Assembly (NCBI GenBank): GCA_047638595.1
Contig: JBLIMJ010000002.1
Location: 640-64,639 of the forward strand
Origin: Acidimicrobiales bacterium
GTDB taxonomy: Bacteria; Patescibacteriota; Minisyncoccia; Phycocordibacterales; UBA918
Length of the DNA: 64,000 bases
Reading direction: 5' to 3'
Part shown: positions 3,268 to 59,795 of the stretch, one piece after another
How positions within the stretch are numbered: the first letter of the stretch is position 1
Layout of the letters: each line of letters starts with the position of its first letter
Notes under the pieces: generated by a model
What the model saw: only the letters and a program-made list of their open reading frames with translations
What the model was told of the DNA's origin: nothing
The model's database searches: none
Program-made: the position numbers and the translations under genes

Positions 3268-3268
3268 A

Positions 3269-5086: not shown

Positions 5087-5087
5087 A

Positions 5088-5483: not shown

Positions 5484-5662
5484 GATGATTTCTTAATTCC
5501 TGGTATATGTCCTTCGTTTGCTTGCTCTCGGAAGCAGATTCGACAAAGGTCGAAGTCCCGCATGTATCCTCGTTTACGACCACACTGGTTGCAACGACGC
5601 ACTACACGAGATTTGAATTTCGGTACGCGTAGCGACCGAATAATTACTGACTTTCGTGCCAT
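5477..5662 (-). CDS. rpsZ: 30S ribosomal protein S14 type Z (zinc-binding)
   Basis: 61 aa, CNQCGRKRGYMRDFDLCRIC Cys4 motif. Confidence 0.9.
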   Translation of the reverse strand: MARKSVIIRSLRVPKFKSRVVRRCNQCGRKRGYMRDFDLCRICFREQANEGHIPGIKKSSW

Positions 5663-6333
5663 ATATTTATATTTTCTTAGGATAGTTTCATGAAGATGTC
5701 ATGACTTTCCTCTAATAATCCGGCTTGCTCACTTTCGCAAGTTCGCCTTCCACGTATACGTACTGCATGGTCACCCATAGCACAAAACACGCCTTCTGTT
5801 GCAAACTTTGAGAATCTTTCGATTATCCCGTTAGTTTGACTACAACAGAGCGGTCCTTCTTCACCTTCCTATTAAAGAATATGTGAGAGATGCGTATATC
5901 GCTTCGTGCACTAATATAGCAAAATACCCCATGAAGTCAATGGTAAAATCACTATTCTTACCCTTTTCAGGCGGTTGCTTTCTAAAGAAAACAACCGCCT
6001 GAAACACCTAGAAAGAGCTAAACACCCAAAATCAGGGCCATTTTGGGTGTTTATCTAAAATTCATATACAAAAACACGACAGCGAAGCTGTCGTGTTTTT
6101 GTATAGAGTTACCTCTTCGAACCGTTACGTTCTGTATCTGAGTTTTCAGTAATGTTTGACTTTCAACGGTACCGTCAAGTTTCTAAGTAAAATTTGTACT
6201 ACGTACAAATTCTACTAAGAACTTCCTGGCCGGACTCGACCGTTCTTTCTCTATGAAGAGAAAGAACATGTCTCCGACTTTTACCACTGAACGAAAGCAA
6301 AACTGTTTGCTTTCTAAAAACCAGAATCAGAAA
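5663..6333. other. 670-bp hairpin-rich noncoding spacer inside the spc cluster (between rplE and rpsZ); no ORF of 60 aa or more
   Basis: hairpins at 5964-6003, 6019-6051, 6070-6101, 6212-6236 and 6275-6375 (12-bp arms TTTACCACTGAA/TTCAGTGGTAAA enclosing the rplE 3-prime end). Confidence 0.6.
6070..6101. terminator. intrinsic terminator-like hairpin ACACGACAGC-GAAG-GCTGTCGTGT flanked by A-run/T-run, in the middle of the spc cluster
   Basis: perfect 10-bp stem; same ACACGACA stem motif as terminator at 1091. Confidence 0.55.
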
Positions 6334-6891
6334 CTATTTAGTTTCAGTTTCTGCTTTTTTCAGTGGTAAACCGATATGTCGTAAAAGCGCTTCAGCCTCC
6401 GCAGGAGTCTTTGCGGTTGTTACGATAGTTATCGCTAGACCAAACACATCTTTAATATCCTCGTTTACTGTTTCTGGGAAGATCGTATGGTCTTTCAGAC
6501 CAAGTGTGATGTTTCCCATTTCATCGATAGCTGTTGCATTTAACCCACGGAAGTCGCGAGTTTGTGGCAAAGCAACGTCGATAAGCTTATCGAGGAATGT
6601 TCGCATACGTTCGCCACGAAGTGTGACTTGGTATCCAACAATATCCCCTTCTCGTAGCTTGAAAGTCGCAATTGACATTCGAGCTGCTCGAGGTGACGCT
6701 TTCTGACCTGTAATCTGAGCAAGTCGATCTTGAATAAGAGCAATCTTATTTTTATCATCAATCTTACCAGTGCCCGTAGAAACGATAACCTTCTCAATAC
6801 GTGGTGCTTGCATTACGTTTGTGTATGCGAATGTATCCTTAAGAGAATCATACACGGCCGCAAGCTTTGTTTGCATATTTAATGTTGCCAT
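6334..6891 (-). CDS. rplE: 50S ribosomal protein L5
   Basis: 185 aa; KVIVSTGTG..; operon context. Confidence 0.9.
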   Translation of the reverse strand: MATLNMQTKLAAVYDSLKDTFAYTNVMQAPRIEKVIVSTGTGKIDDKNKIALIQDRLAQITGQKASPRAARMSIATFKLREGDIVGYQVTLRGERMRTFLDKLIDVALPQTRDFRGLNATAIDEMGNITLGLKDHTIFPETVNEDIKDVFGLAITIVTTAKTPAEAEALLRHIGLPLKKAETETK

Positions 6892-6893
6892 AA

Positions 6894-7205
6894 TTAGATT
6901 TTCTTACCTGAAGGTCGTGCAACACGAACCTTCGTAGTCTTATCACCATCTGTTTCGACCATGTATCCTACACGTACCGCCTTCTTACCTTCTAAGAGTG
7001 CTACGTTTGAAACATGAATGGGTGTACTTTTTTCAACAATTTGACCTGCTGATCGAGCACGTTTGTTCTTCTGGTGTCGTGTGACTACATTTACACCATC
7101 GATGAGTACTTTTTCAGTCTTTGGAAAAGCCTGTTCAACAATACCTGTCTTCCCTTTGCTTTTACCAGCGATCACGATGACGTTGTCTCCTTTTTTGATT
7201 TTCAT
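6894..7205 (-). CDS. rplX: 50S ribosomal protein L24
   Basis: MKIKKGDNVIVIAGKSKGKTG KOW motif. Confidence 0.9.
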   Translation of the reverse strand: MKIKKGDNVIVIAGKSKGKTGIVEQAFPKTEKVLIDGVNVVTRHQKNKRARSAGQIVEKSTPIHVSNVALLEGKKAVRVGYMVETDGDKTTKVRVARPSGKKI

Positions 7206-7222
7206 ACGAATTTCTATTTAGA

Positions 7223-7594
7223 TTAAACGACTTCGGGAGCCAGAGATACAATCTTCTGGAAACCAGCCTCTGATAATTCACGTGGGATAGGGCCAAACAC
7301 ACGGTTTGCCTTAGGTTCCTTCTTTTCTTTATCAATGAGGACAACAGCGTTGTCATCAAATGACACATACGAACCATCTTTTCGACGGTACGCTTTCCTC
7401 TGACGCACTACTACACCACACACGACGTCTTTCTTTTTAACGCCTTTACGTGGTTCAGCAGATTGTACTGAAAGAATTACCAACTCGCCTAGTTCAGCAT
7501 AACGCTTCTTAGAACCGCCAAGTACCTTAAATACTCGACCAATCTTACCTCCAGAGTTGTCAGTAATCTTTACAATTGTTTGTGGTTGTATCAT
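7223..7594 (-). CDS. rplN: 50S ribosomal protein L14
   Basis: MIQPQTIVKITDNSG typical L14 N-terminus. Confidence 0.92.
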   Translation of the reverse strand: MIQPQTIVKITDNSGGKIGRVFKVLGGSKKRYAELGELVILSVQSAEPRKGVKKKDVVCGVVVRQRKAYRRKDGSYVSFDDNAVVLIDKEKKEPKANRVFGPIPRELSEAGFQKIVSLAPEVV

Positions 7595-9942: not shown

Positions 9943-10448
9943 TGTATATATCTTAAAGAAGATGTTGCGAATATAGAAAACCGAACGGTTCGCTATATCC
10001 GCATACTTAATAATTATTCTGCCTCCCCTATCACATCGATAGGTTAGTGTAACGGTTTATTGTTAGGGATTGCCCTACCAGAGGCGAATCCAAAACGAGG
10101 TTAGAACGGGGCTATATTACGTGAAATATGTTGTAAAGTCAACACAATAATGGCCCCGGGAGGTCTCCCTGATCCATTGTACCAATTTGGTGTAAAATGC
10201 CGTTATCTCATAAGAAGTTAACAGATACAACTTGTATGAATGACTGATTCGCGGTACAAAGGGGTTAGGAGGTAAGAGATATGCCACAATTGTATGAAGA
10301 GTAGGCGATTTTGCCACCTGAACTACTTAAATCAGCCAAAAATGCGGAGCAGGAATTGAAAAACTTGCTAACTTGCTCTTAAAGGGCGTAACTGGCTTTG
10401 ATTCTGCGATTATAGCGCAATATCAAAGCACACAGGGAGAAACAAACG
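9943..10448. other. 500-bp structured noncoding region where rplB would normally abut rpsS; several nested hairpins
   Basis: hairpins at 9964-10010 (TGCGAATATAG..CTATATCCGCA with inner CGAACGGTTCG), 10030-10047, 10092-10141, 10142-10153. Confidence 0.5.
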
Positions 10449-10652
10449 ATGCCACACATGCTCACTGAACATGACCCGAAGCAAAGCGATGGGCAAGATG
10501 ACGGAAAAGCGATGGTCCTTAAGGTCCCACCGCTTGATTACGTCACAGAAGAAACAGATCCCCTGGGTAAGGCTAAAGGGCCTGCAGCAGAAGCAGTCGA
10601 CGTCGCAACAGAAGCTTTTGGGCCTGGGATTCTGGCTGGACTTAACCCCTAA
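10449..10652 (+). CDS. hypothetical small acidic protein (67 aa) encoded opposite to the ribosomal operon
   Basis: GGGAGA RBS 8 nt upstream; followed by hairpin plus T-run at 10672-10701. Confidence 0.4.
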   Translation: MPHMLTEHDPKQSDGQDDGKAMVLKVPPLDYVTEETDPLGKAKGPAAEAVDVATEAFGPGILAGLNP

Positions 10653-10671
10653 ACACCGCACACACTCAAAC

Positions 10672-10701
10672 TAAAGGCTGGGAAACCCGGCCTTTTCTTT
10701 T
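10672..10701 (+). terminator. hairpin GGCTGGG-AAA-CCCGGCC followed by TTTTCTTTTT
   Basis: read from sequence. Confidence 0.5.
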
Positions 10702-10722
10702 TATGTTATAGTCATTCTACAT

Positions 10723-11043
10723 ATGCCTAAACCCCGAGGAAAAGAACATACGACCCTTACGGAGACTGCTCAGGAGGTGGTTCGCATACTTAAAGGTATC
10801 TCCGGGGTAAAGATGATTGCTCCTGGCGAGATAAAAACTAACAGTCGTAAAGGTACAGGTGCACGCTTTGTGACCGCGGTATACACTACCGCGGGCATGG
10901 AACTCATTATCTCAGGACAAAGCGTACAGAAAGTAGCTATTCATACAGACGGAAATCCTAAAAATATATTTAAGCTACTTAAAGAACACAAGAAGATGAG
11001 AAATTTTGAGTTTAAACAGCGGGAGAGGAAGCCTGGAATTTAA
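10723..11043 (+). CDS. hypothetical protein (106 aa), basic C-terminus
   Basis: ORF; followed by perfect 13-bp-arm palindrome at 11042-11074. Confidence 0.4.
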   Translation: MPKPRGKEHTTLTETAQEVVRILKGISGVKMIAPGEIKTNSRKGTGARFVTAVYTTAGMELIISGQSVQKVAIHTDGNPKNIFKLLKEHKKMRNFEFKQRERKPGI

Positions 11044-11074
11044 ACAATACTACGTTTAACCGTAGTATTGTTTA
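11042..11074. terminator. perfect palindrome AAACAATACTACG-TTTAAAC-CGTAGTATTGTTT
   Basis: read from sequence. Confidence 0.45.
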
Positions 11075-11177
11075 AACTTCGATACAAAAGAATCTAATAT
11101 CTAACGAGCTTAGCTCCTTGCTTTTTTGTTTCTTTTGGGTATATTTCTTTAGGAAATCTTACACAAGGAAAAGAGCA

Positions 11178-11474
11178 ATGGCAAAAATTGGATTTAACGC
11201 TGTAAGTGAAGAACATAGCCACACTATCGATCAAGGCAACAAAATGAGGAAACTTTTTGCTGCCGTTGTACTCGCAGCATTTGATGATGCGATGGCTGAC
11301 GACAGGAAATACGGCAACGGTCCAGGAGTCATCGCACGCTGGGCTCGTTCACACGACGGTCGCGAAGTTCTGTTATGTGCAGGTATTGAACCAAGCGAAC
11401 GCGCTATAAGAGGAATGATGCAGTTTGTTGCTAATGGCGTGCCGACATCAAAAGCTCTGACAAGAAAAGAATAG
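11178..11474 (+). CDS. hypothetical protein (98 aa from MAKIGFNAV; ORF extends to 11118)
   Basis: AGGAAAAGAG RBS before ATG at 11178; convergent with rplB. Confidence 0.45.
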   Translation: MAKIGFNAVSEEHSHTIDQGNKMRKLFAAVVLAAFDDAMADDRKYGNGPGVIARWARSHDGREVLLCAGIEPSERAIRGMMQFVANGVPTSKALTRKE

Positions 11475-11579
11475 GTTGGGGGTATGTGAGTTACATACCC
11501 CTTTTTGTATTGTCTTTTTGACATTTACGGTGTTCGTCGCCAATCACTAAGTATATTTTTTTCGTCTTCGACTCCAAAC

Positions 11580-11734
11580 CTACTAAGTGTTCTCGACCCC
11601 ACCTCAACTGTCGCTAAAGCAACATGTTTCCGGCTTGGCAAGAGATCCGCAACTGCCTCAAGGCAGTTGTTAAAACAAAGAAAAACACTCCCTTTAAAGG
11701 GAGTGTTTTTCTTTGGTTTATCTCTTCCCACCCA
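11580..11734. repeat. tandem copy 1 of a 190-bp unit: degraded rplB 3-prime end (..IIIVSN-LGGKR*) plus three-stem structured bidirectional terminator
   Basis: P1 aagagat/atctctt, P2 caactgcc-tcaa-ggcagttg, P3 aaaacaaagaaaaac[ACTCCC-TTTAAA-GGGAGT]gtttttctttg. Confidence 0.75.
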
Positions 11735-11769
11735 AGTTACTAACTATAATTATTCGCTACCGCTCCAAT

Positions 11770-11925
11770 TCTAGTAAGTACTCGCGACCCCGACTCGTCT
11801 GTTGCTAAAGCAACATGACTCCGTCTTGGGAAGCGGTCACAACTGCCTCAAGGCAGTTGTTAAAACAAAGAAAAACCTCAGGCTTAAGCCTGGGGTTTTT
11901 CTTTGTTTTACCGCTTCCCACCCAT
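11770..11925. repeat. tandem copy 2 of the same unit, overlapping the true rplB stop
   Basis: P1 gaagcggt/accgcttc, identical P2, P3 apical stem CCTCAGGC-TTAA-GCCTGGGG: compensatory changes relative to copy 1. Confidence 0.75.
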
Positions 11926-18364: not shown

Positions 18365-18585
18365 GGTCGAGTATGCATAATTTTAATGAATATGTAAAGC
18401 AAAAGACCAGCCAGTGCCGGTCCTTTGCTTTATTGGTCTTCAGTCATTAGGGTCAAGTTTCTAATTAGCTAATCGGTATATAGAGAGAGTAAATCATCAA
18501 CTTTTAATCCTTACTTTCACAAACGAATGATATCGTAAAAGTTTACTTTTATGATTCATGAGTGCAGGGAAAGAAAATTTATTTA

Positions 18586-18662
18586 CAGGATCTGTTCAGG
18601 TTATCGCTATTTTTACTAAGGTAAAAATAGCTGGTAACCTTCATTAAGACCTCACGAAGAAT
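18586..18662. repeat. copy A of 77-bp structured element (contains GCTATTTTTAC-TAAG-GTAAAAATAGC hairpin) downstream of fusA
   Basis: identical to 18694-18771. Confidence 0.8.
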
Positions 18663-18693
18663 ACTCCTCTGTTTCTTCGGTCTTTTAATCCTT
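18663..18693 (-). pseudogene. duplicated, frameshifted remnant of the fusA 3-prime end
   Basis: ctcctctgtttcttcggtcttttaatcc versus the true 3-prime end at 18807-18833 (cttctgtttcttcggtcttaatgcc). Confidence 0.6.
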
Positions 18694-18771
18694 ACAGGAT
18701 CTGTTCAGGTTATCGCTATTTTTACTAAGGTAAAAATAGCTGGTAACCTTCATTAAGACCTCACGAAGAAT
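18694..18771. repeat. copy B of the 77-bp element
   Basis: identical to copy A. Confidence 0.8.
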
Positions 18772-18806
18772 AAAAATAAGGCACCCTGCGGGGTGCCTTA
18801 TTTTTA
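18772..18806 (-). terminator. fusA intrinsic terminator AAGGCACCC-TGCG-GGGTGCCTT with flanking A/T runs (bidirectional)
   Basis: abuts fusA stop codon. Confidence 0.7.
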
Positions 18807-20993
18807 TTCTTCTGTTTCTTCGGTCTTAATGCCTCTCGCTGCTTTAATTTCGGCAGCGACATTTGGTGGTACTACTTCGTAGTGGTCAAATTCCATAGTC
18901 ATTGAGGCGCGTCCTTGTGTCATAGATCGTAGTGAGTTTGTGTATCCGAACATTTCAGAGAGTGGTACTTTCGCATTTACGATAGTCTTTCCTCCGAGTT
19001 CTTCAGAACCTTCAACCTGTCCACGCTTAGAAGAAATGTTTCCATTTACGTCTCCTAAGTATTCTTCTGGTGTTCGTACTTCAACCTTCATCACCGGTTC
19101 AAGGAGTACTGCGCTTGCACGCTTGGAAGCTTCTTTAAATGCATTGATTCCTGCAAGTTTGAAGGCGATTTCACTTGAGTCCACGTCATGGTATGAACCA
19201 TCGTAAAGCTCAATTGATACATCTTCCATCTTGTATCCAGCAACCTGCCCTCTCGCCATAGCTTCCTTACACCCTTTCATTACTGGAACAATGTATTCCT
19301 GTGGAATCACACCTCCCTTAATACTATTGATGAATTCGAAATGGTCTTCTCGCGTTACATTCTTTGCAAGCTTCTTTGGTTCACCATCCTCATCTAACTC
19401 TAGTGCTTCAAGCGGCTTGATTCGAATCTTCACGTGACCGTATTGCCCACGTCCACCTGACTGCTTGATGTACTTGTGTTCTGCTTCGGCCTCTCGTTGG
19501 ATTGTTTCTCGGTATGCTACTTGTGGCTTACCAATATCCGCTTCAACACCAAACTCTCGTTTCATTCGGTCAACAAGAATGTCGAGGTGAAGCTCACCCA
19601 TACCAGCAATAATAGTTTCAAGTGTTTCAGGATCAGAAGATACCTTAAATGTAGGGTCTTCATCAGAAAGTCGTTTAAGTGCCATTCCCATTTTTTCCTG
19701 GTCTTGCTTTGTTTTAGGCTCTACACGCACTGCAACCACTGGTTCAGGGAACGTAATAGTTTCAAGGAGCATCGGTGCATCCACATCACAAAGTGTATGT
19801 GAAGTTTTTACTTCTTTAATTCCTACCGCTGCAGCAATCTCTCCTGCGTACACTTCATCCACCTCTTCTCGTTTGTCTGCCATAAGTCGTACGATTCGTC
19901 CTACTCGTTCTTTGTTTCCAGTAGATGAGTTCATGATGTATGTCCCAGACTTCATCGTACCTGAATACACACGGAAGAATGCAAGTTGCCCCACAAACTT
20001 ATCGTCTTGTAGTTTGAACACAAGAGCGCTCAATGGTTCATCATCAGAAGGTTTCCGTGTGATGACAGTTTCTTCATCTTTGATGTCAGTTCCTTGAATA
20101 TCAGGAAGATCAAGTGGAGACGGGAGGTAGTCAACCACAGCATCAAGTACAAGTTGTACACCGATGTTCTGCAATGCAGTACCGGCCATAACAGGGAAGA
20201 TTTCATTTGCGAGCACCGCAACACGAAGTACTCGTTTCAAGTCTTCGTTTGAAGGTTCATTTCCTTCAAGAAAAGCTTCCATAAGCGCATCATCATGCTC
20301 CACAACTCGTTCAACAAGTTCCGCTCGACGTGCTACTGCTTCTGCAACAAACTCTTCAGGAATGTCCGCTTCAGTAACATCTGTTCCCATTTCTCCTGAA
20401 AAAGAGTACGATTTCATAGTGATAAGGTCTACCACTCCACGCATGTCATTTTCTGCCCCCATAGGAATCTGGATTCGGCACGCTTTCTTTGAAAGACGTT
20501 CTTCGATAGATTTAACCGCAGCATCGTAGTCAGCTCCCATTTTGTCCATCTTGTTTACAAAACAGATTCGTGGCACTGCAGCTTCGTCAGCATACCCCCA
20601 GTTTGTTTCAGTCTGTGGCTCTACACCAGCAGCACCATCAAATACCACAACCGCACCATCAAGTACACGCATAGAACGCTTTACCTCTGCAGTAAAGTCG
20701 ATGTGACCTGGAGTATCAATAATGTTAAAGGTGAACTTTTTATCGTTATTGTCTCGATCTGTTTCTAGTGTTTTTGACCAGTTACAAGAAATAGCAGCAG
20801 AAGTAATAGTAATACCACGCTCTCGTTCTTGGTCCATCCAGTCAGTGACTGTTTCACCGTCGTGAACTTCACCAATCTTATGACTCATTCCTGTATAGAA
20901 AAGAATTCGTTCAGATGTAGTTGTTTTACCAGCATCAACGTGCGCAACAATACCGAAGTTACGTAGTCGATCTAGTGGAAATGCTCGTGCCAT
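18804..20993 (-). CDS. fusA: elongation factor G
   Basis: 729 aa; AHVDAGKTTT, DTPGHIDF, NKMD. Confidence 0.97.
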   Translation of the reverse strand: MARAFPLDRLRNFGIVAHVDAGKTTTSERILFYTGMSHKIGEVHDGETVTDWMDQERERGITITSAAISCNWSKTLETDRDNNDKKFTFNIIDTPGHIDFTAEVKRSMRVLDGAVVVFDGAAGVEPQTETNWGYADEAAVPRICFVNKMDKMGADYDAAVKSIEERLSKKACRIQIPMGAENDMRGVVDLITMKSYSFSGEMGTDVTEADIPEEFVAEAVARRAELVERVVEHDDALMEAFLEGNEPSNEDLKRVLRVAVLANEIFPVMAGTALQNIGVQLVLDAVVDYLPSPLDLPDIQGTDIKDEETVITRKPSDDEPLSALVFKLQDDKFVGQLAFFRVYSGTMKSGTYIMNSSTGNKERVGRIVRLMADKREEVDEVYAGEIAAAVGIKEVKTSHTLCDVDAPMLLETITFPEPVVAVRVEPKTKQDQEKMGMALKRLSDEDPTFKVSSDPETLETIIAGMGELHLDILVDRMKREFGVEADIGKPQVAYRETIQREAEAEHKYIKQSGGRGQYGHVKIRIKPLEALELDEDGEPKKLAKNVTREDHFEFINSIKGGVIPQEYIVPVMKGCKEAMARGQVAGYKMEDVSIELYDGSYHDVDSSEIAFKLAGINAFKEASKRASAVLLEPVMKVEVRTPEEYLGDVNGNISSKRGQVEGSEELGGKTIVNAKVPLSEMFGYTNSLRSMTQGRASMTMEFDHYEVVPPNVAAEIKAARGIKTEETEE

Positions 20994-21338
20994 AATAATG
21001 TTAAATATGTGTGTAAATAATAAATCACGTAAAAAATAACTCTTACGCGCCTCCCTTCACCTTTTCATATACATATATATGTATTTCGTCGGAGAAAGTA
21101 ATTGTCCAAGGACAAAGTGCGAGTACTATACGGCATTTATCCCATTTAAGCAACGAAATAATACCCTTAAATGACCACTTAAAGCGAAGCTTTTAAGTGG
21201 TCAATTATGTGCAACATACATCCCAATACCTTTGGTTTAGGATGAATATTGACTTTTATACTAAAATATGATATAATACAAATAGGTTAAGGGAACGAAT
21301 ATTCACTTCGTTTTCACCCCGAGCAACAGGAGATCATC

Positions 21339-21779
21339 ATGATTCGCTCAATTGTACTTTCTATCACTATCTTCCTTGGCCTGTCTGGCCAGACTTACGC
21401 ACAGAGCATATCTGAAGCAGACATGGAAACGTCTTTCAACACCGGAAAGATGGTCGACAGCCGTATCGTCGATCAAGAATTTACTCGCATTGGTGGCACG
21501 GTGCCGCTCATGCTGGTCATGTTCGAAGATCCGAACGTAGCAGAACTCGAAAAGCTTTGTCTCGATGTCTGCATTTTTGAATTCACTGCCGTTGAGGGCG
21601 ATATGATGCTATCAGGCATCAAGGCAAATCCCGACGACATGCTGGATCTTCACATCTACAAAGCGTACATGGCCCTGCGTCACGTCGAGGCTCATGACAC
21701 AGGTAGTTTTTTCCACCAAGTGAGGAAGATTGCGAGGGGAAACCCTAGCATCCTTGTCGTGCGAGAGCCAAACAGCTAA
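21339..21779 (+). CDS. hypothetical secreted protein (signal peptide)
   Basis: MIRSIVLSITIFLGLSGQTYAQ. Confidence 0.5.
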   Translation: MIRSIVLSITIFLGLSGQTYAQSISEADMETSFNTGKMVDSRIVDQEFTRIGGTVPLMLVMFEDPNVAELEKLCLDVCIFEFTAVEGDMMLSGIKANPDDMLDLHIYKAYMALRHVEAHDTGSFFHQVRKIARGNPSILVVREPNS

Positions 21780-21933
21780 ATAATTGACAGGGCGGCCAGC
21801 GGCCGTTCTGTCACAACACGCGCTGTGTTTTCTAAAAAGAAAACCTCTGCGTGTTTTCTTTTAGATATGACATCGCATACCTTGACTTTATATAAAAATA
21901 TGTTATTGTATTCTTCTCAAATAGAGAAACGTT

Positions 21934-22512
21934 ATGAAACACATCATCAATCCCTTCACTTATTTACGTGAGGCATACACAGCTGCCCTCCAATCCTTTG
22001 AGTCAGAAGTTTCTCGAAGTTTTGCAGTGACTGCAACAGTGCTTATCCCTGTTTTTGTCGTACTCTTATTCTCTTCAACACTCACTAGTGCCGCACTCTA
22101 TGTATTCCCTGCGAAAACCGTAGACATCCAAGCGATACAAATTGATGTAAATACAGTTGAAATTACCCTCCAAGGTAATCAAACACTTTTAAATGCTGCA
22201 GAAGTAGAGTTTTATTTTGACCCGACATACGTACATGTATATGACGTGAGGCTATCGGAAAGCCTTTGCGAAGAACAATTTATCATTACAAAAGAAGTCG
22301 ACAACATTACTGGTCGTATCTTCTACCAGTGTGGGACAGTGACTCCATTTGCGGGACAAGATACAACCATTGCAACACTGAAAGTTATTCCGCTAAAAGT
22401 TGGTACTTCACCACTTTCATTTGGAAGCAATACAAACGTACTTGCACATGACGGATATGGCTCAAACGTCACCAAAGATCGTCTTGCAAGCATCTTCCAG
22501 TTCTCTGACTAA
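21934..22512 (+). CDS. hypothetical membrane-anchored protein
   Basis: N-terminal TM helix; ORF. Confidence 0.5.
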   Translation: MKHIINPFTYLREAYTAALQSFESEVSRSFAVTATVLIPVFVVLLFSSTLTSAALYVFPAKTVDIQAIQIDVNTVEITLQGNQTLLNAAEVEFYFDPTYVHVYDVRLSESLCEEQFIITKEVDNITGRIFYQCGTVTPFAGQDTTIATLKVIPLKVGTSPLSFGSNTNVLAHDGYGSNVTKDRLASIFQFSD

Positions 22513-22686
22513 AGAAAGCATGCAAAAACTTAAACACGTAACGGATTGCTCCGTTACGTGTTTTTTGACATCAGAAGCTTTTATTACTAGTCACAGCAAT
22601 CATCCATTCTCTGAAGTAACCAAGGTAAGATATATAAATGAGGAGTTGATGCTCCAATAAGTTCATCAAACCTGGGAGGTTTTATA

Positions 22687-23073
22687 ATGCGACATATACT
22701 TACTGCCCTTTGCTTAATGACATTTTCGTTTAGCCAGGCACACGCTGGCTCTGTGGATGAAGAATACATTTGGCTGCCAAAGGAACATACTGTGTGCATG
22801 ACACTCACTGGTCTTGAAGACACAGTCACGGAAGTGAGTTTTGCTGATTGCGGTACCATACCGTACGAAATGCGATTTAGGGTTGCGAACAAAACTGATG
22901 GGAATAATGGATTCAAACTTCTGAGTCTGGAATATATTTTTGTCGCCATTACCGAAGATGGCACAAGTATCGCATCAACAGAGATTCAAGTTCTGTACAG
23001 CATGGATCCACAACCAACTGATGATACAAGCGTATCAAAAGTATTTGTTGGTACCAAAAATATAAATCCTTAA
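22687..23073 (+). CDS. hypothetical secreted protein
   Basis: signal peptide MRHILTALCLMTFSFSQAHA. Confidence 0.5.
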   Translation: MRHILTALCLMTFSFSQAHAGSVDEEYIWLPKEHTVCMTLTGLEDTVTEVSFADCGTIPYEMRFRVANKTDGNNGFKLLSLEYIFVAITEDGTSIASTEIQVLYSMDPQPTDDTSVSKVFVGTKNINP

Positions 23074-23077
23074 ACAC

Positions 23078-23150
23078 GGAAGTGACCAAAGTAAAAATGA
23101 ATTTTTACTTTGGTCACTTCCCCTCCGCGCTTAAGCGCGGTTTTTGTTTG
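23078..23150 (+). terminator. two consecutive hairpins (21-bp stem GGAAGTGACCAAAGTAAAAAT.., then CGCGCTTAAGCGCG plus T-run)
   Basis: read from sequence. Confidence 0.65.
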
Positions 23151-23206
23151 AAAGAAATATCCCTCTCCTCCCGTATAATGAAAGTAATACTTAGTAACAA
23201 TTCTTT

Positions 23207-25288
23207 ATGAAGCAGAGCTTATACGACATAGTAGTAATCGGCGCAGGCTCAGGAGGTCTTACTACCGCAGTTGGTTTTTCCAAAGTTGGAAAGAAAGTTC
23301 TTCTTGTGGAACGTGAACATATCGGTGGAGAGTGCACTAACTCAGGGTGTATTCCAAGTAAAGCGCTTCTGCATCATGCGAAGAGTTATCATGCTGCCAA
23401 ACAGATTTCAGGACAGAGTAAAGAAGGTGAAACCTACCGTACAGAAGCATTCAACTACGTGCGAGACAAAGTAAATAGTATCCTTGAAGAAGAAACGCCT
23501 GAAACATTTGAAAAACTGGGTATTGATGTAGTCATGGGGGAAGCCGTGTTTCATACAAAGTGTTCAATCAAGGTAAATGGCACAACCTACGGGTATAAAA
23601 AAGCTATCATCGCCACCGGCTCCTCCCCACAAATGATCAAAGTCGAAGGACTTAAGACATCGGATGTCTTAAGTAATCAAAATATCTTTGAGTTGGACGA
23701 TGTGCCGAAGAAACTCCTTATCATCGGTTCAGGACCAATCGGAATGGAGATGGGGCAAGCTTTTGCAATGCTCGGAAGTAAGGTGACTATTGCAAGTATC
23801 GATAGTCGTTTCGCACGACTTGAAGATGATTCTATTTCACCAATCATTCAAGCTGAGTTTGAAAAACTTGGTATAGATATTCATCTTAATGCATTTATTC
23901 AAAAGGTGGAAAGTGACGAGGCTGTTTTCGAGCTGAAAGAGAACGATGAAGTAACTGGTGAAGTTACAGTGCCATTCGATAAAGTACTTATCGCCATCGG
24001 CCGAGTGCCGAACCTCCCAGAAGGCTTGGAGATTGCTGGAATCAAGTCAGAGTCGTACGGTATAGTCGTCGACAAGCAACACCGTACCAGCAATAAACAT
24101 GTCTATGCGGTAGGTGACGTCGCGCAGAAACTGAAATTCACTCACACTGCTGACGACATTGGGAGACAGGTGGTCATGCATGTCCTTAGTAAAGGATGGG
24201 TACGTTTAAATACTAAAAAAGCAGTACCTAAAGTTACCTACACAAAACCCGAGATGGCCCAAGTCGGTCTTTCTCACACAGCAGCGTTAGAAAAATATTC
24301 TGCGCAAGAAATAATGCGTATCGAAGTACCGTACACAGCAAACCATCGCGCAAACACCGACAATGAGACTGATGGTCTAATGATTGTCATCGCACGGCGA
24401 TTGAATGGTGCCGTACTTGGAGCACATATCATCGGCGTATCTTCCGGAGAAATGATTTCTGTTTTTACACTCGCTATCGACCGCAAGATTTCCATGTGGC
24501 AACTACGGCGAATTATCTTCGCCTACCCTACCTACTGCCTTCTGATTAAAAAAGCAGGTGACTATTTCTTTGCACAACAAATTGCATCACTGAAAAATGA
24601 TTTATTATATCAATTCAAAAAACATGCACCAAAAATAATTGCACTCATCTTTTGGGGAACTATCCTCTATACATTCCAACAGTATCGAATCGATAACAAT
24701 CTTTCATATCAAGCCATACTATTGCAAGGGCTTCACTTCTTTACGAGCACCATGTACGGACCGTTGGTATACATGGGACTCTACGCCATTCGTCCAATCA
24801 TCCTCTTCCCTGCAACACTTCTCACCGCACTCTCTGGGGCACTGTTTGGTTTCTGGTGGGGTATCGCGTACACCATCTTGGGAGAAAATGCTTCCGCAAA
24901 CTTCGCATACTGGATTGGTCGTTTCTTCGGCAAAGACTTACGCCTTGAAGACTCACTCATTGGCAACTGGGTAGAAGCACTACGAAAAAATGGTTTTGGG
25001 ACAGTGCTCCTTATGCGTCTTTTTTATGTGCCATTTGATCTGACTAACTATGGTTCTGGTATTGTGAAAGTGAAATGGAGTAAATATGCATTAGCAACTG
25101 TCATCGGCATCATGCCAGGACTCACAACCTTTGTTGCACTTGGTGCTGCTGTCGATATAGAAGAGTTTCAAATGAATGGTCTCACCTTCGATGCCCTTGA
25201 CCCAAAATTCCTCGCTCTTTCAGCAACAATATTCATCGTTTCGTTGCTACTTTCAAAATTCTTAAAGTATTGGAGAGCAAAACTATAA
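23207..25288 (+). CDS. bifunctional protein: N-terminal class-I FAD-dependent pyridine nucleotide-disulfide oxidoreductase (about 450 aa, CTNSGC redox disulfide, dihydrolipoamide dehydrogenase/mercuric-reductase-like) fused to C-terminal DedA/TVP38-TMEM64 membrane domain
   Basis: GAGSGGLT, GGECTNSGCIPSK, NADH-binding GSGPIGME, dimerisation domain; C-terminal 6 TM with DedA-like signature. Confidence 0.8.
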   Translation: MKQSLYDIVVIGAGSGGLTTAVGFSKVGKKVLLVEREHIGGECTNSGCIPSKALLHHAKSYHAAKQISGQSKEGETYRTEAFNYVRDKVNSILEEETPETFEKLGIDVVMGEAVFHTKCSIKVNGTTYGYKKAIIATGSSPQMIKVEGLKTSDVLSNQNIFELDDVPKKLLIIGSGPIGMEMGQAFAMLGSKVTIASIDSRFARLEDDSISPIIQAEFEKLGIDIHLNAFIQKVESDEAVFELKENDEVTGEVTVPFDKVLIAIGRVPNLPEGLEIAGIKSESYGIVVDKQHRTSNKHVYAVGDVAQKLKFTHTADDIGRQVVMHVLSKGWVRLNTKKAVPKVTYTKPEMAQVGLSHTAALEKYSAQEIMRIEVPYTANHRANTDNETDGLMIVIARRLNGAVLGAHIIGVSSGEMISVFTLAIDRKISMWQLRRIIFAYPTYCLLIKKAGDYFFAQQIASLKNDLLYQFKKHAPKIIALIFWGTILYTFQQYRIDNNLSYQAILLQGLHFFTSTMYGPLVYMGLYAIRPIILFPATLLTALSGALFGFWWGIAYTILGENASANFAYWIGRFFGKDLRLEDSLIGNWVEALRKNGFGTVLLMRLFYVPFDLTNYGSGIVKVKWSKYALATVIGIMPGLTTFVALGAAVDIEEFQMNGLTFDALDPKFLALSATIFIVSLLLSKFLKYWRAKL

Positions 25289-25352
25289 ACACAACATATA
25301 CCATAAAGGACGGAGAACACATCTCCGTCCTTTATTTTCAGAAACTGCTCAA

Positions 25353-25715
25353 TTAAGCAACTGGCCAGACTTTCCCTGAAATAACCCAAAAAGTACCTCC
25401 GATAATTCCTAGGATTAATATAAAACCTATAACTGCAAGTGTTATTCCTAAAACACTATGCTTTCTTTTTTTAGGTTCAGACTGTGCACTTTTAATGTCA
25501 CCTCCCTCAACAGTTTTTTCTGCTTCATTTTCTGTCTGTGCAGGTGCAGAGGTATCGGCCTCTACAGCAAAATCGTTACACGCTGTATACACGAGTTTAA
25601 TTTCTTCATCGGAATAGCCGGCTTCATGAAGTTCAGCTTGTATTTTTTCGTACGGGTATCCTATTTCGATACGTTCACGTACAGCATTTAATAATTGTGG
25701 ATCCAAGTCATTCAT
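25353..25715 (-). CDS. hypothetical protein with C-terminal TM anchor
   Basis: ORF. Confidence 0.45.
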   Translation of the reverse strand: MNDLDPQLLNAVRERIEIGYPYEKIQAELHEAGYSDEEIKLVYTACNDFAVEADTSAPAQTENEAEKTVEGGDIKSAQSEPKKRKHSVLGITLAVIGFILILGIIGGTFWVISGKVWPVA

Positions 25716-25784
25716 ATCTAATATTATGCCACACTAATGTACTGAGCTTCTATTTTATAAACAGAAACATAACCATCTAATCCT

Positions 25785-25816
25785 CAATGACAATTCTTTC
25801 TCGTTTTTCATCGACA
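25785..25816 (-). repeat. remote duplicate of the 3-prime end (last 12 codons and stop) of the AbrB-like gene at 26703-26888
   Basis: tcaatgacaattctttCtcgtttttcatcgac versus tcaatgacaattctttTtcgtttttcatcgac at 26719-26750; encodes VDEKRERIVIED*. Confidence 0.75.
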
Positions 25817-25924
25817 CTCTATTATTCTTCATAGCACTCAAGCCTGGGCAGACAGGCTATAATCCTTGACAATATTCATTTTGATTATATATTAGATTTG
25901 GAAGTATCATAGAAAGGAACTCCG

Positions 25925-26524
25925 ATGGGAACAGATCACAGCAACAGACCAAACATTCTCGACAACTTGATGGATCGCAGGACAATTGTGCTTGCCGATA
26001 AGATTACAAGTAAATCAATCGGCGAGATCTGCAATCAAATTCTGACTTTGCAGACAATCTCAAATGATGAAATATTTCTAATCATCCAAAGTGGTGGTGG
26101 TAATACGCACTCAGCACTGACCATGTGCGATATGATGACACATCTCATCACTGCACCGATTACTGGTATTGCACTTGGTGATTGCCACTCGGCTGCAACT
26201 TTCATCATGTTACATTGCGATACACGTATCGCTTTACCGCATGCAAAATTCATTATCCATTCTGGCACAATTAGTGGCGTCTCAACCCGCATGGATGATG
26301 CCGCGGAAGAAGAAGTGAAACATCTTCTTCAAGACATCCAGAGAACCTCAAAGGAGGTTGTGAAGGTTTATATGGATAGGCTTGGCAAAAGTAAGGCCCA
26401 AGTCGAAGCAATCATTGCTCGAGGTGACCAATCCTTCGACAACGCCCTTTCTGCAGAAGATGCCATGAAAATTGGTCTTGTTCAAAAAATCCAGACGGGG
26501 AAACTTCCCATATTTGGTAAATGA
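25925..26524 (+). CDS. ClpP-family serine protease paralog (divergent; Ser/His/Asp positions appear conserved)
   Basis: aligns with canonical ClpP at 60571: GDCHSAATF versus [15 protein letters not shown] versus MIHQPS; RTIVLAD..I..QIL..L. Confidence 0.65.
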   Translation: MGTDHSNRPNILDNLMDRRTIVLADKITSKSIGEICNQILTLQTISNDEIFLIIQSGGGNTHSALTMCDMMTHLITAPITGIALGDCHSAATFIMLHCDTRIALPHAKFIIHSGTISGVSTRMDDAAEEEVKHLLQDIQRTSKEVVKVYMDRLGKSKAQVEAIIARGDQSFDNALSAEDAMKIGLVQKIQTGKLPIFGK

Positions 26525-26544
26525 TTCTACCGAGGATTGAGAAT

Positions 26545-26570
26545 CCCGCGTTAAAGGCGGGGTTTTTTCT
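26545..26570 (+). terminator. CCCGCG-TTAAAG-GCGGGG plus TTTTTTCTTTT
   Basis: read from sequence. Confidence 0.65.
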
Positions 26571-26650
26571 TTTCCCTATCAAAGATACTAAAAGGATTGG
26601 GATTTATGCATACGTTTAGAAAATCATATAAGCACAATACATAATATCTC

Positions 26651-26688
26651 AAATACCTATCATACGATTAATCGTATGATAGGTATTT
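26651..26688. promoter_or_regulatory. perfect 17-bp-arm palindrome AAATACCTATCATACGA-TTAA-TCGTATGATAGGTATTT just 3-prime of the AbrB-like gene
   Basis: read from sequence; terminator or operator. Confidence 0.5.
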
Positions 26689-26702
26689 GTCTTTAAATAT
26701 CT

Positions 26703-26888
26703 TTACCCTACCCAATCTTCAATGACAATTCTTTTTCGTTTTTCATCGACGGTAATCTGCAGCTTTTGTTTTGACTGCCAGCGAAATAGACGCACTGCTT
26801 CTAAGGGGAGTGTGACGCTATAACTTTTTCCATTTGAAATTTTATTTAAAGACCGCACATTCTCTTCCCCTACCTTTCTTCGCGCCAT
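26703..26888 (-). CDS. AbrB/MazE/SpoVT-family swapped-hairpin DNA-binding protein (antitoxin-like, 61 aa)
   Basis: KSYSVTLPLEAVRLF..KLQITVDEKRKRIVIE pattern. Confidence 0.55.
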   Translation of the reverse strand: MARRKVGEENVRSLNKISNGKSYSVTLPLEAVRLFRWQSKQKLQITVDEKRKRIVIEDWVG

Positions 26889-27091
26889 AATAGTTTCATT
26901 ACACTTAATACATACATAGTATACCGTATCTTATAGAGAATCCTTGCTTTTATCCTTGTATTAAAGCAAGGATTCTTCTTAATATGATGACACATGTAGT
27001 TGTAAAAATATCAAGAGTGCTCTTTTGGCTATCACCAGGAGCTTGCTGAATACAAACCAAATACAAGAAACTGACCAACGGACCAGACAAA

Positions 27092-27716: not shown

Positions 27717-28136
27717 CTATAGCTTACATTCTCCTCGTGTATATGAAACGACACTACCTTGCGCACATGCACTACATGCATTGCCAAAAGTTTTTGGTAT
27801 CGGGTCACAGGGGGTGTTAACACATTGAACCTCCAGAAAACCACACACAGGTGCATACTCCATAGTGCACATCTCTGCACGTTTTTGTTTATCCGTGCAA
27901 ACAACCCCAAAAGTATCTGTCTTTACAGGAGGAATCTTATCATCGGTAACAATATCAATATCCTCAACGAGTGTTGAGGTTGAGTTGGGTGCTGATGCCG
28001 GGGTTGAAGTTGAAATTGGTTCCAGTATGGAATCTGGGGATGGCATCGAGGCTGGAGATGGTGCGAAAAAGATGACTGCCAATAGTGTCAGAAAAATACC
28101 TAACACAACAATTTTCTGTAGATTTTCCATATGCAC
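27717..28136 (-). CDS. secreted/anchored small protein with C-terminal Kazal-type serine protease inhibitor-like domain
   Basis: N-terminal TM; CTMEYAPVCG..C.NTPC....TFGNACSACAQGSVVSYTRGEC cysteine spacing. Confidence 0.55.
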   Translation of the reverse strand: MHMENLQKIVVLGIFLTLLAVIFFAPSPASMPSPDSILEPISTSTPASAPNSTSTLVEDIDIVTDDKIPPVKTDTFGVVCTDKQKRAEMCTMEYAPVCGFLEVQCVNTPCDPIPKTFGNACSACAQGSVVSYTRGECKL

Positions 28137-33302: not shown

Positions 33303-33438
33303 TATCTACCCAGACTGTCTCACTCCACCCAAACAGCTTCCTCTTAAACCAATACCCTTCAGGTTGTCTTTAAGATACTTTATATAATTAGTGAACCATT
33401 TTTTCATATTTATAGTCTGTCGAAAATTAAAAGTTTTA

Positions 33439-33657
33439 CTGGGAACTGAGATTTTTTAAACGGGACAAGGTGAGCTGGACACAGCTCAAGACCTTTTGAG
33501 GTATTTTGAAGAATGAAAAATATCCAAAATATGTACAGTTTCTGTAAGAAAAAGGCCTAGAAATTTGTGAGTCGTACTTTGGGTACGGTGAACAAATTTT
33601 TGGACCTTTTAACGTCGTCTGGTGCAGAAAATGTCTGTTACCAATGGTAAATTTCAT
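33439..33657 (-). repeat. distal copy of rpsG-downstream module (includes degraded rpsG 3-prime end HW* and hairpin-in-hairpin with GAGTCGTAC..GTACGGTGAAC)
   Basis: aligns with 33763-33900 with a 90-bp insertion. Confidence 0.7.
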
Positions 33658-33762
33658 TTTGAAATGCACCCCAGGAGTATTTCCATTTTTATAGTCACCT
33701 CGTTCCTTAAAAATTGGGCAAATAAGAGGTAGCGAACAAAAAAAACATACAGTCAAATAGTA

Positions 33763-33900
33763 AGAATGCAACCTGGGAACTGAGATTTTCAAAAGCAGAC
33801 AAGGCAAAAGGCCCAAAAATTTGCGAGCCGTACATTGGTACGGTGAACAAATTTTTGGGCCTTTTAACGCCGTCTGGTGCAGAAAATGTCTGTTACCAGG
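33763..33900 (-). repeat. proximal copy of rpsG-downstream module overlapping true rpsG stop; contains perfect 18-bp outer stem AAAAGGCCCAAAAATTTG/CAAATTTTTGGGCCTTTT (33806-33865) with inner CCGTAC-ATTG-GTACGG
   Basis: read from sequence. Confidence 0.7.
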
Positions 33901-34366
33901 CGAAGTGGGCAAATGCTCGGTTAGCCTCTGCCATCTTGTGCGTATCCTCCTTCTTCTTCACTGCAGCTCCTTCTTCTTTAGCTGCAAGCATGAGTTCTGA
34001 AGCGAGTGCCTTGAACATTGGTACGCCCTTCTGACTTCGAGAAGCCTTGATGAGTGCACGTAGTGCAAGTGCGAGTCGTCGTTCGAGACGAACTTCGCGA
34101 GGTACTTGGTAGTTTGCACCACCAACACGTCGTGACCGTACTTCCATCTGCGGACCAGCGTTTCGAACTGCTGTATCAAAGATTTCAATTGGATCACCAC
34201 CACCTTCTTTTGCATCCTTTATTACATCGAATGCTCCATACACGATTTTTCGTGCAGTTTCTTTTTGACCGTTAAGCATCACGTAGTTGATGAGTCGTTC
34301 AACATCTACTGAACCAAACTTCATGTCTGGCTTGACGATTGGTCGTTTCTTTATTGGTCGTCGCAT
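33893..34366 (-). CDS. rpsG: 30S ribosomal protein S7
   Basis: [14 protein letters not shown].. Confidence 0.93.
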
Positions 34367-42690: not shown

Positions 42691-42920
42691 CTATTTTGGT
42701 TGTAGGCGTCTAAGCACTGTTCCATGTATAGGACCACATGCCAGACTGCCTATAAGCCGAACGAAATTAGCTTTTGCGACACCTTGGGAATCTGACGGTT
42801 CACCAATTGGATTCCTGCGCCTAGGTTTTTCTTGAAACCGTTTCAGTGTGTTGGATTTTGGTTTTTTTAACATTCTGCACCTCCTTTATTACGGTACCAT
42901 ACAGAGTATCTGATGCAACT

Positions 42921-42964
42921 AGAAAGAATCACTGCTTTAATAACGTTATTAAAGCAGTGATTCT
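42921..42964. terminator. perfect 20-bp-arm palindrome AAAGAATCACTGCTTTAATAACG/CGTTATTAAAGCAGTGATTCTTT downstream of ybaK
   Basis: read from sequence. Confidence 0.5.
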
Positions 42965-43141
42965 TTATTGAATGATCTCAACTATATTTGGCTCTACTGC
43001 TCTTACATAATCTGACGACAACATAGCGATGCAATACTCGCTGTCGCCAGCACTGAAAATTAAATGAAGAAAGGAACGTAGTGTCTATTCTGAATTTACG
43101 TCTCAATTCCTTCCTTCCCTAGAAGGAATTGCTAGACGCAA

Positions 43142-43645: not shown

Positions 43646-43895
43646 ACAGGTGCTTTTGCTTCTTACAGTAGCTGTTCAGGTTATCAATATTTCTTTTCGG
43701 TACCTCAAGAAATATCTGGTCACCTCTTGTGACAGTCCCCCGGACTGTCTCACCTTGTGCGAGGGAGTATTCGGAACGTAATGCTGCTGCTTCCTCACTG
43801 ATACGGACTGCTTCATGTTCAAAGCATTGATAGTGACAATTCGCACTATCTAAAAGTTGCTTAATTTTCTGTACTGTTTGATTATACTCAGACAT
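43638..43895 (-). pseudogene. truncated/frameshifted tandem paralog of the YbaK-like gene (first 45 aa conserved, then frameshift)
   Basis: MSEYNQTVQKIKQLLDSANCHYQCFEHEAVRISEEAAALRSEYSLAQG versus MSSYHPVVQQIKDLLTQSSLEYKCFEHDPVRTSEEAASLRPEYSISQG; alternative frame gives RYFLRYRKE versus LILRIKKKE. Confidence 0.55.
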
Positions 43896-59772: not shown

Positions 59773-59795
59773 GCCTTCTCGCAGAGAGACAATCA

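Follow-up and report, generated by a model that had tools for sequence, protein, structure and literature searches.

Evidence for insertion of a clpP-like gene cassette at the 3' end of an AbrB-like gene, a recurrent site of cargo capture in Patescibacteria

A stretch of 64,000 nt from contig JBLIMJ010000002.1 (assembly GCA_047638595.1, positions 640 to 64,639, forward strand; this whole stretch is hereafter called the window) carries a gene for a ClpP-like protease between an intact gene for a small AbrB/SpoVT-like protein and a displaced fragment of the 3' end of that same gene. Sequence comparison with related loci supports an insertion of the clpP-like gene into the AbrB-like 3' end, accompanied by regeneration of that end. 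The AbrB-like locus is a recurrent hot spot of cargo capture in Patescibacteria, and its cargoes include a response regulator, a GDSL hydrolase, a DarT-NADAR pair, a HigBA-like pair, HD-domain genes, and restriction-modification genes. The best explanation overall, for which we would claim somewhat better than even confidence, is that a horizontally acquired single-gene cassette recombined into the AbrB-like 3' end. That it did so without a dedicated integrase, by homology-driven exchange, is put forward more tentatively, at a little below even confidence.

The source of the window is a metagenome-assembled genome, and its host is an ultra-small bacterium of the Patescibacteria, also known as the Candidate Phyla Radiation (CPR); every relative of the AbrB-like protein is patescibacterial. 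The name on the NCBI record, 'Acidimicrobiales bacterium', is at odds with these relatives and probably goes back to a mislabelled bin. At 2818-3967 of the window, uL15 directly follows uS5, with no uL30 gene in between, and the absence of uL30 is a known hallmark of the CPR. The genomes of this group are tiny and streamlined, and little is understood of the ways in which accessory genes enter them. For comparison, a profile of the AbrB-like gene was run against 105 related loci (labelled L001 etc.).

The duplicated gene end and the cassette

The intact AbrB-like gene (61 aa) occupies 26703-26888 on the minus strand and ends in VDEKRKRIVIEDWVG*. A pattern search for a 32-nt sequence within it returned two matches in the 64 kb, at 25784-25815 and 26719-26750, and the chance expectation was zero in 100 shuffles. 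This bears out the direct repeat proposed in an earlier reading of the DNA made without database searches (the sequence-only reading), which had placed the second copy correctly and the first one 1 nt off, at 25785-25816; with two copies only in the window, the repeat is not one that recurs at many unrelated loci. Ungapped extension lengthens it to 37 nt (25779-25815 versus 26714-26750, at a spacing of 935 nt). The copies differ at 2 of these 37 positions, the longest exact run common to both is 16 nt, and beyond the 37 nt no similarity is seen between the two neighbourhoods on either side.

The copy at 26714-26750 covers codons 47-58 of the intact gene plus one base (minus strand), so that the last three codons and the stop fall outside the repeat. 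The copy at 25779-25815 is a displaced, nonfunctional 3' fragment, also on the minus strand, that encodes VDEKRERIVIED and then TAG. When a profile of 85 orthologous genes was used with nhmmer, 25777-25816 aligned to gene positions 138-177. The fragment is a dead copy, because its TAG replaces the codon for Trp59, a residue that is invariant in 34 orthologs. The peptide of the fragment had been taken by the sequence-only reading for the last 12 codons of the gene, which in fact ends differently, as given above. No other duplicated gene ends flanking a cargo were found elsewhere in the 64-kb window.

The sequence between the copies, i.e., the cassette body, measures 898 bp (25816-26713) and holds a promoter, the clpP-like gene, a terminator, a palindrome, and 11 bases of the regenerated gene, namely, the rest of the Trp59 codon, Val60, Gly61, and the stop. 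The promoter-like site (TTGACA-16 nt-TATATT, 25866-25893, plus strand) agrees with the consensus at 11 of 12 positions and presumably functions as such. The cargo gene encodes 199 aa (25925-26524, plus strand) and is followed by a hairpin with a T-run that resembles an intrinsic terminator (26539-26567, plus strand) and is predicted to end the clpP-like transcript. Both this hairpin and the Pfam match described below agree with the earlier description of a clpP-like gene with a terminator of its own.

Thirteen nucleotides past the stop of the AbrB-like gene lies a perfect 40-bp palindrome (26650-26689). Its arms are 20 nt long (17 nt in the sequence-only reading), 100% complementary, and without a spacer; as RNA it would fold into an 18-bp hairpin (-27.4 kcal/mol, z = -8.9). 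The palindrome has no counterpart at the opposite end of the cassette, and a comparable perfect hairpin is found at the same cassette end in one of the related loci described below (L052). It is probably a hairpin or a bidirectional terminator separating two convergent genes, or it may alternatively serve in protein binding.

A composition signal of foreign DNA was not found: the GC content of the cassette is 0.404 versus 0.419 for the window, and the GC content at third codon positions (GC3) is within the range of the window genes. The old downstream side of the target gene, adjoining the dead fragment, is occupied by an orphan open reading frame (ORFan; 120 aa, 25353-25715, minus strand) with a C-terminal hydrophobic segment. 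The ORFan had a database match to itself only and none to the families of Pfam, NCBIfam, PHROG, and PADLOC. A search of the window for structured RNA left every Rfam family below its gathering score.

Syntenic relatives without the cassette

The relatives have common flanks, namely, the genes for an ABC ATPase, the AbrB-like protein, a Pyr_redox-VTT fusion, and EF-G. The fusion is represented in the window by a 693-aa open reading frame (ORF) at 23207-25288, in which a pyridine-nucleotide-disulphide oxidoreductase with dimerisation domain is joined to a C-terminal VTT/DedA-type membrane domain, and it is kept in L002. The closest syntenic relatives have a single copy of the AbrB-like gene, and relatives whose AbrB-like gene is without the insert, the check that the sequence-only reading had proposed, do exist. 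In L002/L027 (AbrB-like protein 93% identical), nothing but 111 bp and a terminator lies between the AbrB-like gene and the convergent oxidoreductase gene, and in L003/L026 (97%) and L029/L031/L032 (77%), the same gap holds a gene for a 215-aa HD-domain protein. The clpP-like gene and the 120-aa ORF are absent from all of these loci, and the cassette body is absent from L028 too. Because the syntenic relatives are without both of these, the interval between the AbrB-like and oxidoreductase genes was rebuilt in the lineage of the window, and the clpP-like gene is a gain. A relic of the ancestral HD-domain gene after the fragment (25778-25690, compared with L003, L031, and L002) was considered as well and rejected, as 598, 1016, and 1581 of 2000 shuffles, respectively, scored as well as the real sequence.

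The sequence-only reading had seen in the repeats the classic footprint of an integrated element with attL/attR-like ends. Insertion with regeneration of the gene end is upheld, both by the empty relatives and by the recurrence of the architecture at other loci (see below); the attL/attR recombinase that such a footprint implies is unproven, and none was found among the window and cargo ORFs that were scanned (see below).

Recurrence at the same gene in other CPR loci

Other partial copies of the AbrB-like gene in the 105 loci are all in direct orientation, and the architecture of intact gene, cargo, and duplicated 3' fragment represents at least three other events. The first cassette, in L044, combines an intact gene (3609-3794), an 86-nt fragment at 97% identity located 636 nt downstream, and, on the opposite strand, a gene for a 120-aa response-regulator receiver; the same receiver gene is the cargo in L055 (intact gene 2091-2276, fragment of 88 nt at 88%). 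In L052 (intact gene 227-412, fragment of 67 nt at 94%) the cargo is a GDSL hydrolase gene on the opposite strand, and in L103 (intact gene 1453-1650, fragment of about 72 nt) it is a DarT-NADAR pair plus small membrane ORFs. Cargo types in these recurrent loci were assigned by Pfam.

In L103, the sequence just past the fragment (4378-5600) corresponds to 319-1416 of L102 at 82% identity, and since in L102 this sequence follows directly after the intact gene, L102 is the empty site for L103, and the fragment in L103 is the original gene end. The regenerated gene end in L103 contains a 29-nt insertion that alters the C-terminus. Moreover, cassettes and flanks occur in different combinations: L044 and L055 differ in their flanks but share one cassette (87% over 547 nt), and L052 and L055 have both flanks in common (83% and 90%) with different cassettes and fragment boundaries. 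Because these contigs stem from different samples and assemblies, a local artefact is ruled out.

Further variants of the locus were seen. In L092, two whole copies of the AbrB-like gene (215 nt at 92%) are separated by 1.9 kb that hold DUF3800 and methyltransferase genes, in L081 the intact resident gene is preceded upstream by a foreign-type 3' fragment or truncated first copy, and L068 has three copies of the 5' region, which stand before a P-type ATPase gene, a GDSL hydrolase gene, and the AbrB-like gene. The 3' end is what was retained, downstream of the intact gene, in four of the five fragment cases. A HigB/HigA-like pair comes right after the AbrB-like gene in L051, L053, and L054. When 137 representative ORFs from the downstream side were scanned as a pool, the commonest among the families listed were DNA methylases, ResIII helicases, and a restriction enzyme. 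Among 85 loci, the upstream side alone is common to 61 pairs and the downstream side alone to 35; both sides vary and the test is coarse, and the result is mildly supportive of a greater variability downstream than upstream of the gene.

In one clade (L033, L042, L053, L040, L006, and L046), a gene for transfer-messenger RNA (tmRNA) is convergent with the AbrB-like gene at a distance of 0.65-3.5 kb, and all variable cargo is located in the space that the two 3' ends enclose. In L046, a partial copy of the tmRNA flank begins 110 nt past the AbrB-like gene, with the full flank at a distance of 3.2 kb, a pattern which suggests that insertions take place from the tmRNA side too.

Mechanism of cassette acquisition

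Under the explanation favoured here, a founding illegitimate or Campbell-type join would have given rise to the duplicated gene end, and from then on the cassette would have homology to a single conserved gene on its left as well as on its right. After DNA uptake, a double crossover by host RecA could then copy the cassette into relatives with a single gene copy, the left crossover lying within the 5' two-thirds of that gene and the right one within its 3' third. The upstream copy would thereby complete a working gene, and the downstream copy would be the displaced end, now in decay, its Trp codon reading TAG.

The window has competence-type genes and encodes ComEC, RecJ, and two type IV pilus components, the ATPase and the platform protein. 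Integrase or transposase families were not found among approximately 55 of its ORFs, nor was an integrase found among the individually scanned cargo ORFs of related loci or among the 25 of 157 families listed in the pooled scan of the 137 downstream ORFs. The repeats at the various loci measure 37, 67, about 72, 86-88, and 215 nt, and their left boundaries are at gene positions of about 98, 110, 120, 139, and 139. This variety, together with the configurations of L092, L081, and L068, fits homology patches in any part of a conserved locus better than a single attachment (att) core.

Several points weigh against such a homology-driven origin. The exact pre-insertion state of the window was not found, i.e., no relative has the ORFan directly after the AbrB-like gene, and because there is no empty-site relative for the window (the 120-aa ORF being an ORFan), the order of events is not fixed: the cassette may have separated the gene from its old tail, or else the fragment and the ORFan may have come later. 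In three lineages (window, L103, and L055) the high-identity core has its start at the codon for Val47 (GTCGA), and this start, the direct orientation of the copies, and the constant regeneration of the gene also fit a recombinase acting in trans. The comparison contigs are mostly short, and an integrase may lie a few kb away. The comparison of the 5' part with the 3' part for breakpoints in L055, L044, and L052 had segments of just 48-96 nt to work with. Lastly, in model bacteria, diverged genomes recombine inefficiently when the homologous patches measure 40-90 nt.

The alternative that survives best, and one which we consider rather unlikely, is site-specific integration, in which the AbrB-like 3' end would be the attB site, and an att-flanked element resembling a cis-mobilisable element (CIME) would be moved by a tyrosine or serine recombinase encoded elsewhere, its own recombination genes having been lost or never present. 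It accounts for repeats that are direct copies of the target 3' end next to a regenerated gene, for the displaced copy being the original end in L103/L102, for the exchange of cassettes between flanks and of flanks between cassettes, and for the codon that the window, L103, and L055 have in common as the start of the core; precedents are the CIMEs (PMC7563491), the H47 island (PMC3191183), and the partial tRNA repeats of Prochlorococcus (bioRxiv 10.1101/2020.12.28.424599). It does not account for the lack of an integrase in the window, the scanned cargo segments, and the listed families of the pooled scan. In addition, no attP-like copy turned up in 2.9 million viral contigs, where there was neither an AbrB-like relative nor a match to a degenerate pattern of the gene end, although the same pattern matches 39 of the fetched loci. 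Repeats that range from 37 to 215 nt with scattered left boundaries, the 5' duplicates of L068, the whole-gene duplicate of L092, and the upstream fragment of L081 also misfit a single att core.

A dedicated, previously undescribed system of cassette capture is more doubtful again and seems improbable to us. The last ~48 nt of the AbrB-like gene, with the GTCGA core at codon 47, would be its recombination site, and it would be a recombinase in trans, or machinery of the AbrB-like locus itself, that inserts and swaps promoter-bearing single-gene cassettes and at the same time regenerates the gene end. If true, it would amount to an integron-like shuffling device in genomes thought to be poor in mobile elements.

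The repeat may also be what is left of an AbrB-like gene that was once duplicated in tandem and whose second copy lost its 5' part, with the clpP-like gene arriving between the copies separately. The two full copies of L092 with cargo between them, the truncated first copy and intact second copy of L081, and the three 5'-region copies of L068 speak for such a history, but random decay should leave other remnants than a 3' end kept downstream in four of five cases, L103/L102 is a simple insertion compared with its empty site, and the closest syntenic relatives of the window are single-copy; overall we regard a tandem relic as quite improbable.

Chance similarity or an assembly artefact, e.g., a chimera of strain variants joined via k-mers or the palindrome, is very improbable. 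In its favour are the metagenomic origin of the assembly and the fact that L001, a Logan contig of the same organism, ends inside the 40-bp palindrome, which probably interrupts the assembly graph. However, L001 is an independent assembly that corresponds to window 20605-26679 with 100% identity over 6075 nt and spans the oxidoreductase gene, the ORFan, the fragment, and the clpP-like gene. Zero chance matches are expected, an exact run of at most 16 nt is too short for a k-mer join, and the same architecture is present in four other contigs from different samples. Least probable of all, and already contradicted by synteny, is vertical inheritance of the clpP-like gene as a second housekeeping ClpP (ClpP2-type) in a conserved neighbourhood, with the repeat being incidental. 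The full-length ClpP fold and triad and the PDB matches to Listeria ClpP1 and mycobacterial ClpP2 might suggest this, but the syntenic relatives are without the gene, its nearest homolog is 53% identical, the homologs have unrelated neighbourhoods, and the family is rare.

The ClpP-like protease

The cargo protein matches Pfam CLP_protease (PF00574, MEROPS S14) with 92.9 bits and an E-value of 2.8e-26 (cut-off 20.2), over profile positions 8-180 of 182. In an alignment of 21 family members, Ser89 and His112 are invariant and Asp168, in an RGDQ motif, is nearly so; the catalytic Ser89 and His112 align with those of housekeeping ClpP. An AlphaFold model of the monomer (predicted local distance difference test, pLDDT, 80.4) was matched by Foldseek to Thermus and Neisseria ClpP with template modelling (TM) scores of 0.80-0.90, a root-mean-square deviation (rmsd) of about 2.1 A, and an E-value of 5e-16. 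The triad and the fold agree with the first description of the product as a Ser-His-Asp protease with a ClpP fold. No Clp ATPase gene is adjacent to the clpP-like gene. On these grounds of sequence and model, the product is a genuine and probably active accessory ClpP-fold protease; the fold and the conserved triad point to a Ser-His-Asp peptidase that would act beside housekeeping ClpP.

The protein is nevertheless distinct from the ClpP families in the databases. The NCBIfam ClpP equivalogs, PRK00277 among them, are not reached (best score 92.6 bits versus a cut-off of 228; TIGR00493, 53 versus 308.6), and neither is the phage head-maturation protease NF045542 (47 bits versus a cut-off of 120). 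Its matches to PHROG are weaker than those to ClpP, its neighbours are cellular genes, and there are no phage genes nearby. Listeria ClpP1 and mycobacterial ClpP2 are among its best sequence matches in the PDB. The gene is a paralog in addition to the resident one, since the window also holds a housekeeping cluster (58525-62960) with the genes for trigger factor (58525-59772), ClpP (60550-61170), and RNase Y. The housekeeping ClpP, located beside trigger factor, reaches 275.5 bits on the Pfam profile and is 28% identical to the cargo protein; no clpX follows its gene in the window.

The family to which the cargo protein belongs is small, with 16 clusters at E <= 1e-30 and 190 at E <= 1e-10 in an exhaustive search of 1.84 billion representatives, and its nearest member is 53% identical. 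Four homologs have unrelated neighbourhoods and no adjacent Clp ATPase. The possibility raised with the sequence-only reading, that the paralog might be a housekeeping ClpP2 with a conserved neighbourhood, is thus not borne out, the housekeeping clpP being the gene at 60550-61170. Family members have a C-terminal GKL(D/P)IF tail and three conserved cysteines, both absent from housekeeping ClpP, and most of them have an insertion of 12-13 residues in the handle region, which the protein of the window does not have. PADLOC, which was used to look for known defence systems, matched neither the ClpP-like protein and its homologs nor the ORFan, nor did it match the AbrB-like protein or the Kazal-like one described below.

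A conserved partner or flanking repeats common to the family were looked for and rejected, as the neighbourhoods are unrelated and repeats are seen in L107 alone. There, at 5155-7566, a ClpP-like homolog (P0008), a methyltransferase gene, and a 183-aa ORF lie between 78-nt direct repeats with 88% identity. These repeats are intergenic, have partial copies between the genes, and look like repeated promoter regions.

The AbrB-like target gene and the Kazal-like neighbour

The AbrB-like gene is highly conserved in Patescibacteria: orthologs of its product that are 60-97% identical occur in Paceibacteria, Kaiserbacteria, Ryanbacteria, Moraniibacteria, and other Patescibacteria. The AbrB/SpoVT assignment of the 61-aa gene is plausible, and it is sub-threshold in every test: the match to Pfam MazE_antitoxin has an E-value of 0.002 and 18.3 bits (cut-off 24.7), a PDB profile search gave AbrB-family regulators as the sole matches, all weak (E about 0.6), and a fold search with the monomer model (pLDDT 71) put MazE and AbrB on top at nonsignificant E-values of 0.5-0.8. 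Three of the orthologs have precomputed PF04014 matches.

An imperfect palindrome (repeat I1) lies 5' of the gene at 26928-26985. It is kept in most related loci, is presumably an operator or promoter element, and belongs to the conserved locus, not to the cassette. A second palindrome of the same type (AAAGAATCACTGCTTTAATAAC / GTTATTAAAGCAGTGATTCTTT) is found at 42918-42966, ~40 nt 5' of a minus-strand ORF of ~60 codons. The two palindromes hint at a common operator and hence at a small regulon.

About 1 kb from the cassette, the sequence-only reading had noted a Kazal-type inhibitor gene (27717-28136) and taken it as a hint of an accessory module of protease and inhibitor. A Kazal-like nature of this 139-aa protein is plausible from its sequence. 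It matches Pfam Kazal_1 with an E-value of 0.015 and 15.7 bits (cut-off 21) over 18 of 49 profile positions; its weak PDB matches, at E-values of 0.1 or higher, are all to ovomucoid Kazal domains via CTMEYxPxCG and KTxGNxC, and the six-cysteine spacing of Kazal domains fits only if an insert of 12 residues is allowed. The module is not supported: with a hydrophobic segment at its N-terminus, the Kazal-like protein looks secreted, and no segment of that kind is present in the ClpP-like protein; moreover, L002 has a homolog of the Kazal-like region yet no clpP-like gene.

Other repeats in the window

Within the S10 ribosomal-protein operon, directly after rplB, the window has about 2 kb of non-ribosomal DNA (9943-11908). 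This DNA carries plus-strand ORFs with DUF2103 (10723-11043) and DUF6280 (11118-11474) and two tandem copies (11529-11720 and 11739-11910) of a ~190-nt element, each copy of which ends in hairpins. Parts of the element recur at ~82% identity in other CPR loci beside variable cargo, e.g., in L053 (5946-6049) by the tmRNA 3' end and in L110 (7158-7229) between a ClpP-like gene and a tRNA gene, and a further piece is found in the window at 6266-6315.

Just 3' of the EF-G gene, an 81-nt perfect repeat occurs at 18583-18663 and 18692-18772, the copies being 109 nt apart. Its relatives are located between genes at 4411-4500 and 43653-43753, and also in L002 (12055-12140). The element may be an intergenic repeat family resembling repetitive extragenic palindromic (REP) sequences. 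A 158-codon ORF just 3' of rpsG (33436-33912), with no Pfam match, contains an internal 62-nt repeat with 97% identity (33582-33643 and 33837-33898, 255 nt apart).

Significance and comparison with known systems

The hot spot is concrete and defined by sequence, being the tail of one conserved gene of 61 codons, and single genes as well as toxin/defence pairs enter and swap there with no visible integrase. It can be surveyed across thousands of genomes, which would help to separate homology-driven uptake from site-specific recombination in these organisms. A small, uncharacterised family of ClpP-fold proteases is also flagged here as accessory cargo beside a normal ClpP.

Among known systems, CIMEs of 1.2-13 kb occupy the 3' ends of rpmG, rpsI, and fda in streptococci and are att-flanked remnants left by ICEs (integrative and conjugative elements) or IMEs (integrative and mobilisable elements) (PMC7563491). 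Like these, the units described here place accessory cargo between direct repeats of the 3' end of a conserved protein-coding gene that stays intact, reuse the target, and have no recombination genes. Unlike CIMEs, they have no parent ICE/IME or cognate integrase that is known or was seen; they are also smaller (repeat spacing 0.6-2.7 kb, often one gene) and variable in the length and boundary of the repeat, and both the host group, Patescibacteria, and the target gene are new here. The H47 island of E. coli, which has imperfect direct repeats, moves by host functions (PMC3191183; PMC5426353). It is likewise a small, repeat-bounded island with no recombinase of its own, i.e., it follows a 'parasitic strategy', but H47 measures 13 kb, its repeats are not the end of a target gene, and its excision and integration have been shown experimentally.

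In streamlined Prochlorococcus genomes, old integrations have left partial tRNA repeats as their marks (bioRxiv 10.1101/2020.12.28.424599). The tycheposons concerned resemble the present case in the streamlined genome, the few conserved targets, the partial target copies, and the adaptive or defensive cargo; they differ in having recombinases of the tyrosine or serine type and in using tRNA or tmRNA genes as targets, whereas here the target is protein-coding and no such recombinase was found in the ORFs scanned. Single-gene units at one fixed site and cassettes swapped between lineages are reminiscent of integrons. However, there is no IntI in the window and no site of the attI/attC type, the cassettes bring along a promoter and a terminator, the repeat at their flanks consists of a gene end, and the cargo is usually convergent with the target gene. 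The sole inverted repeat of the cassette at the AbrB-like locus is the perfect 40-bp palindrome, and the cassette does not qualify as an integron cassette.

The exchange of variable loci via conserved flanks and homology-facilitated illegitimate recombination after natural transformation are established concepts. Here too a conserved anchor would receive foreign DNA, and an enzyme encoded by the element would be unnecessary; the difference is that both anchors lie within one 186-bp gene, owing to its duplicated end. As for the cargo, the ClpP1/ClpP2 systems of Listeria and Mycobacterium and the phage head-maturation proteases have the ClpP fold and the Ser-His-Asp triad in common with it, and in the former a second ClpP-family gene likewise stands beside the housekeeping clpP. 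The cargo protein departs from both in its identity of about 28% to the resident ClpP, its scores below the NCBIfam cut-offs, its GKL(D/P)IF tail, and its conserved cysteines, and in belonging to a small family without conserved neighbours or nearby phage genes. The closest known kinds are the CIME-like, integrase-less islets bounded by repeats, together with the footprints of integration at tRNA genes in streamlined genomes.

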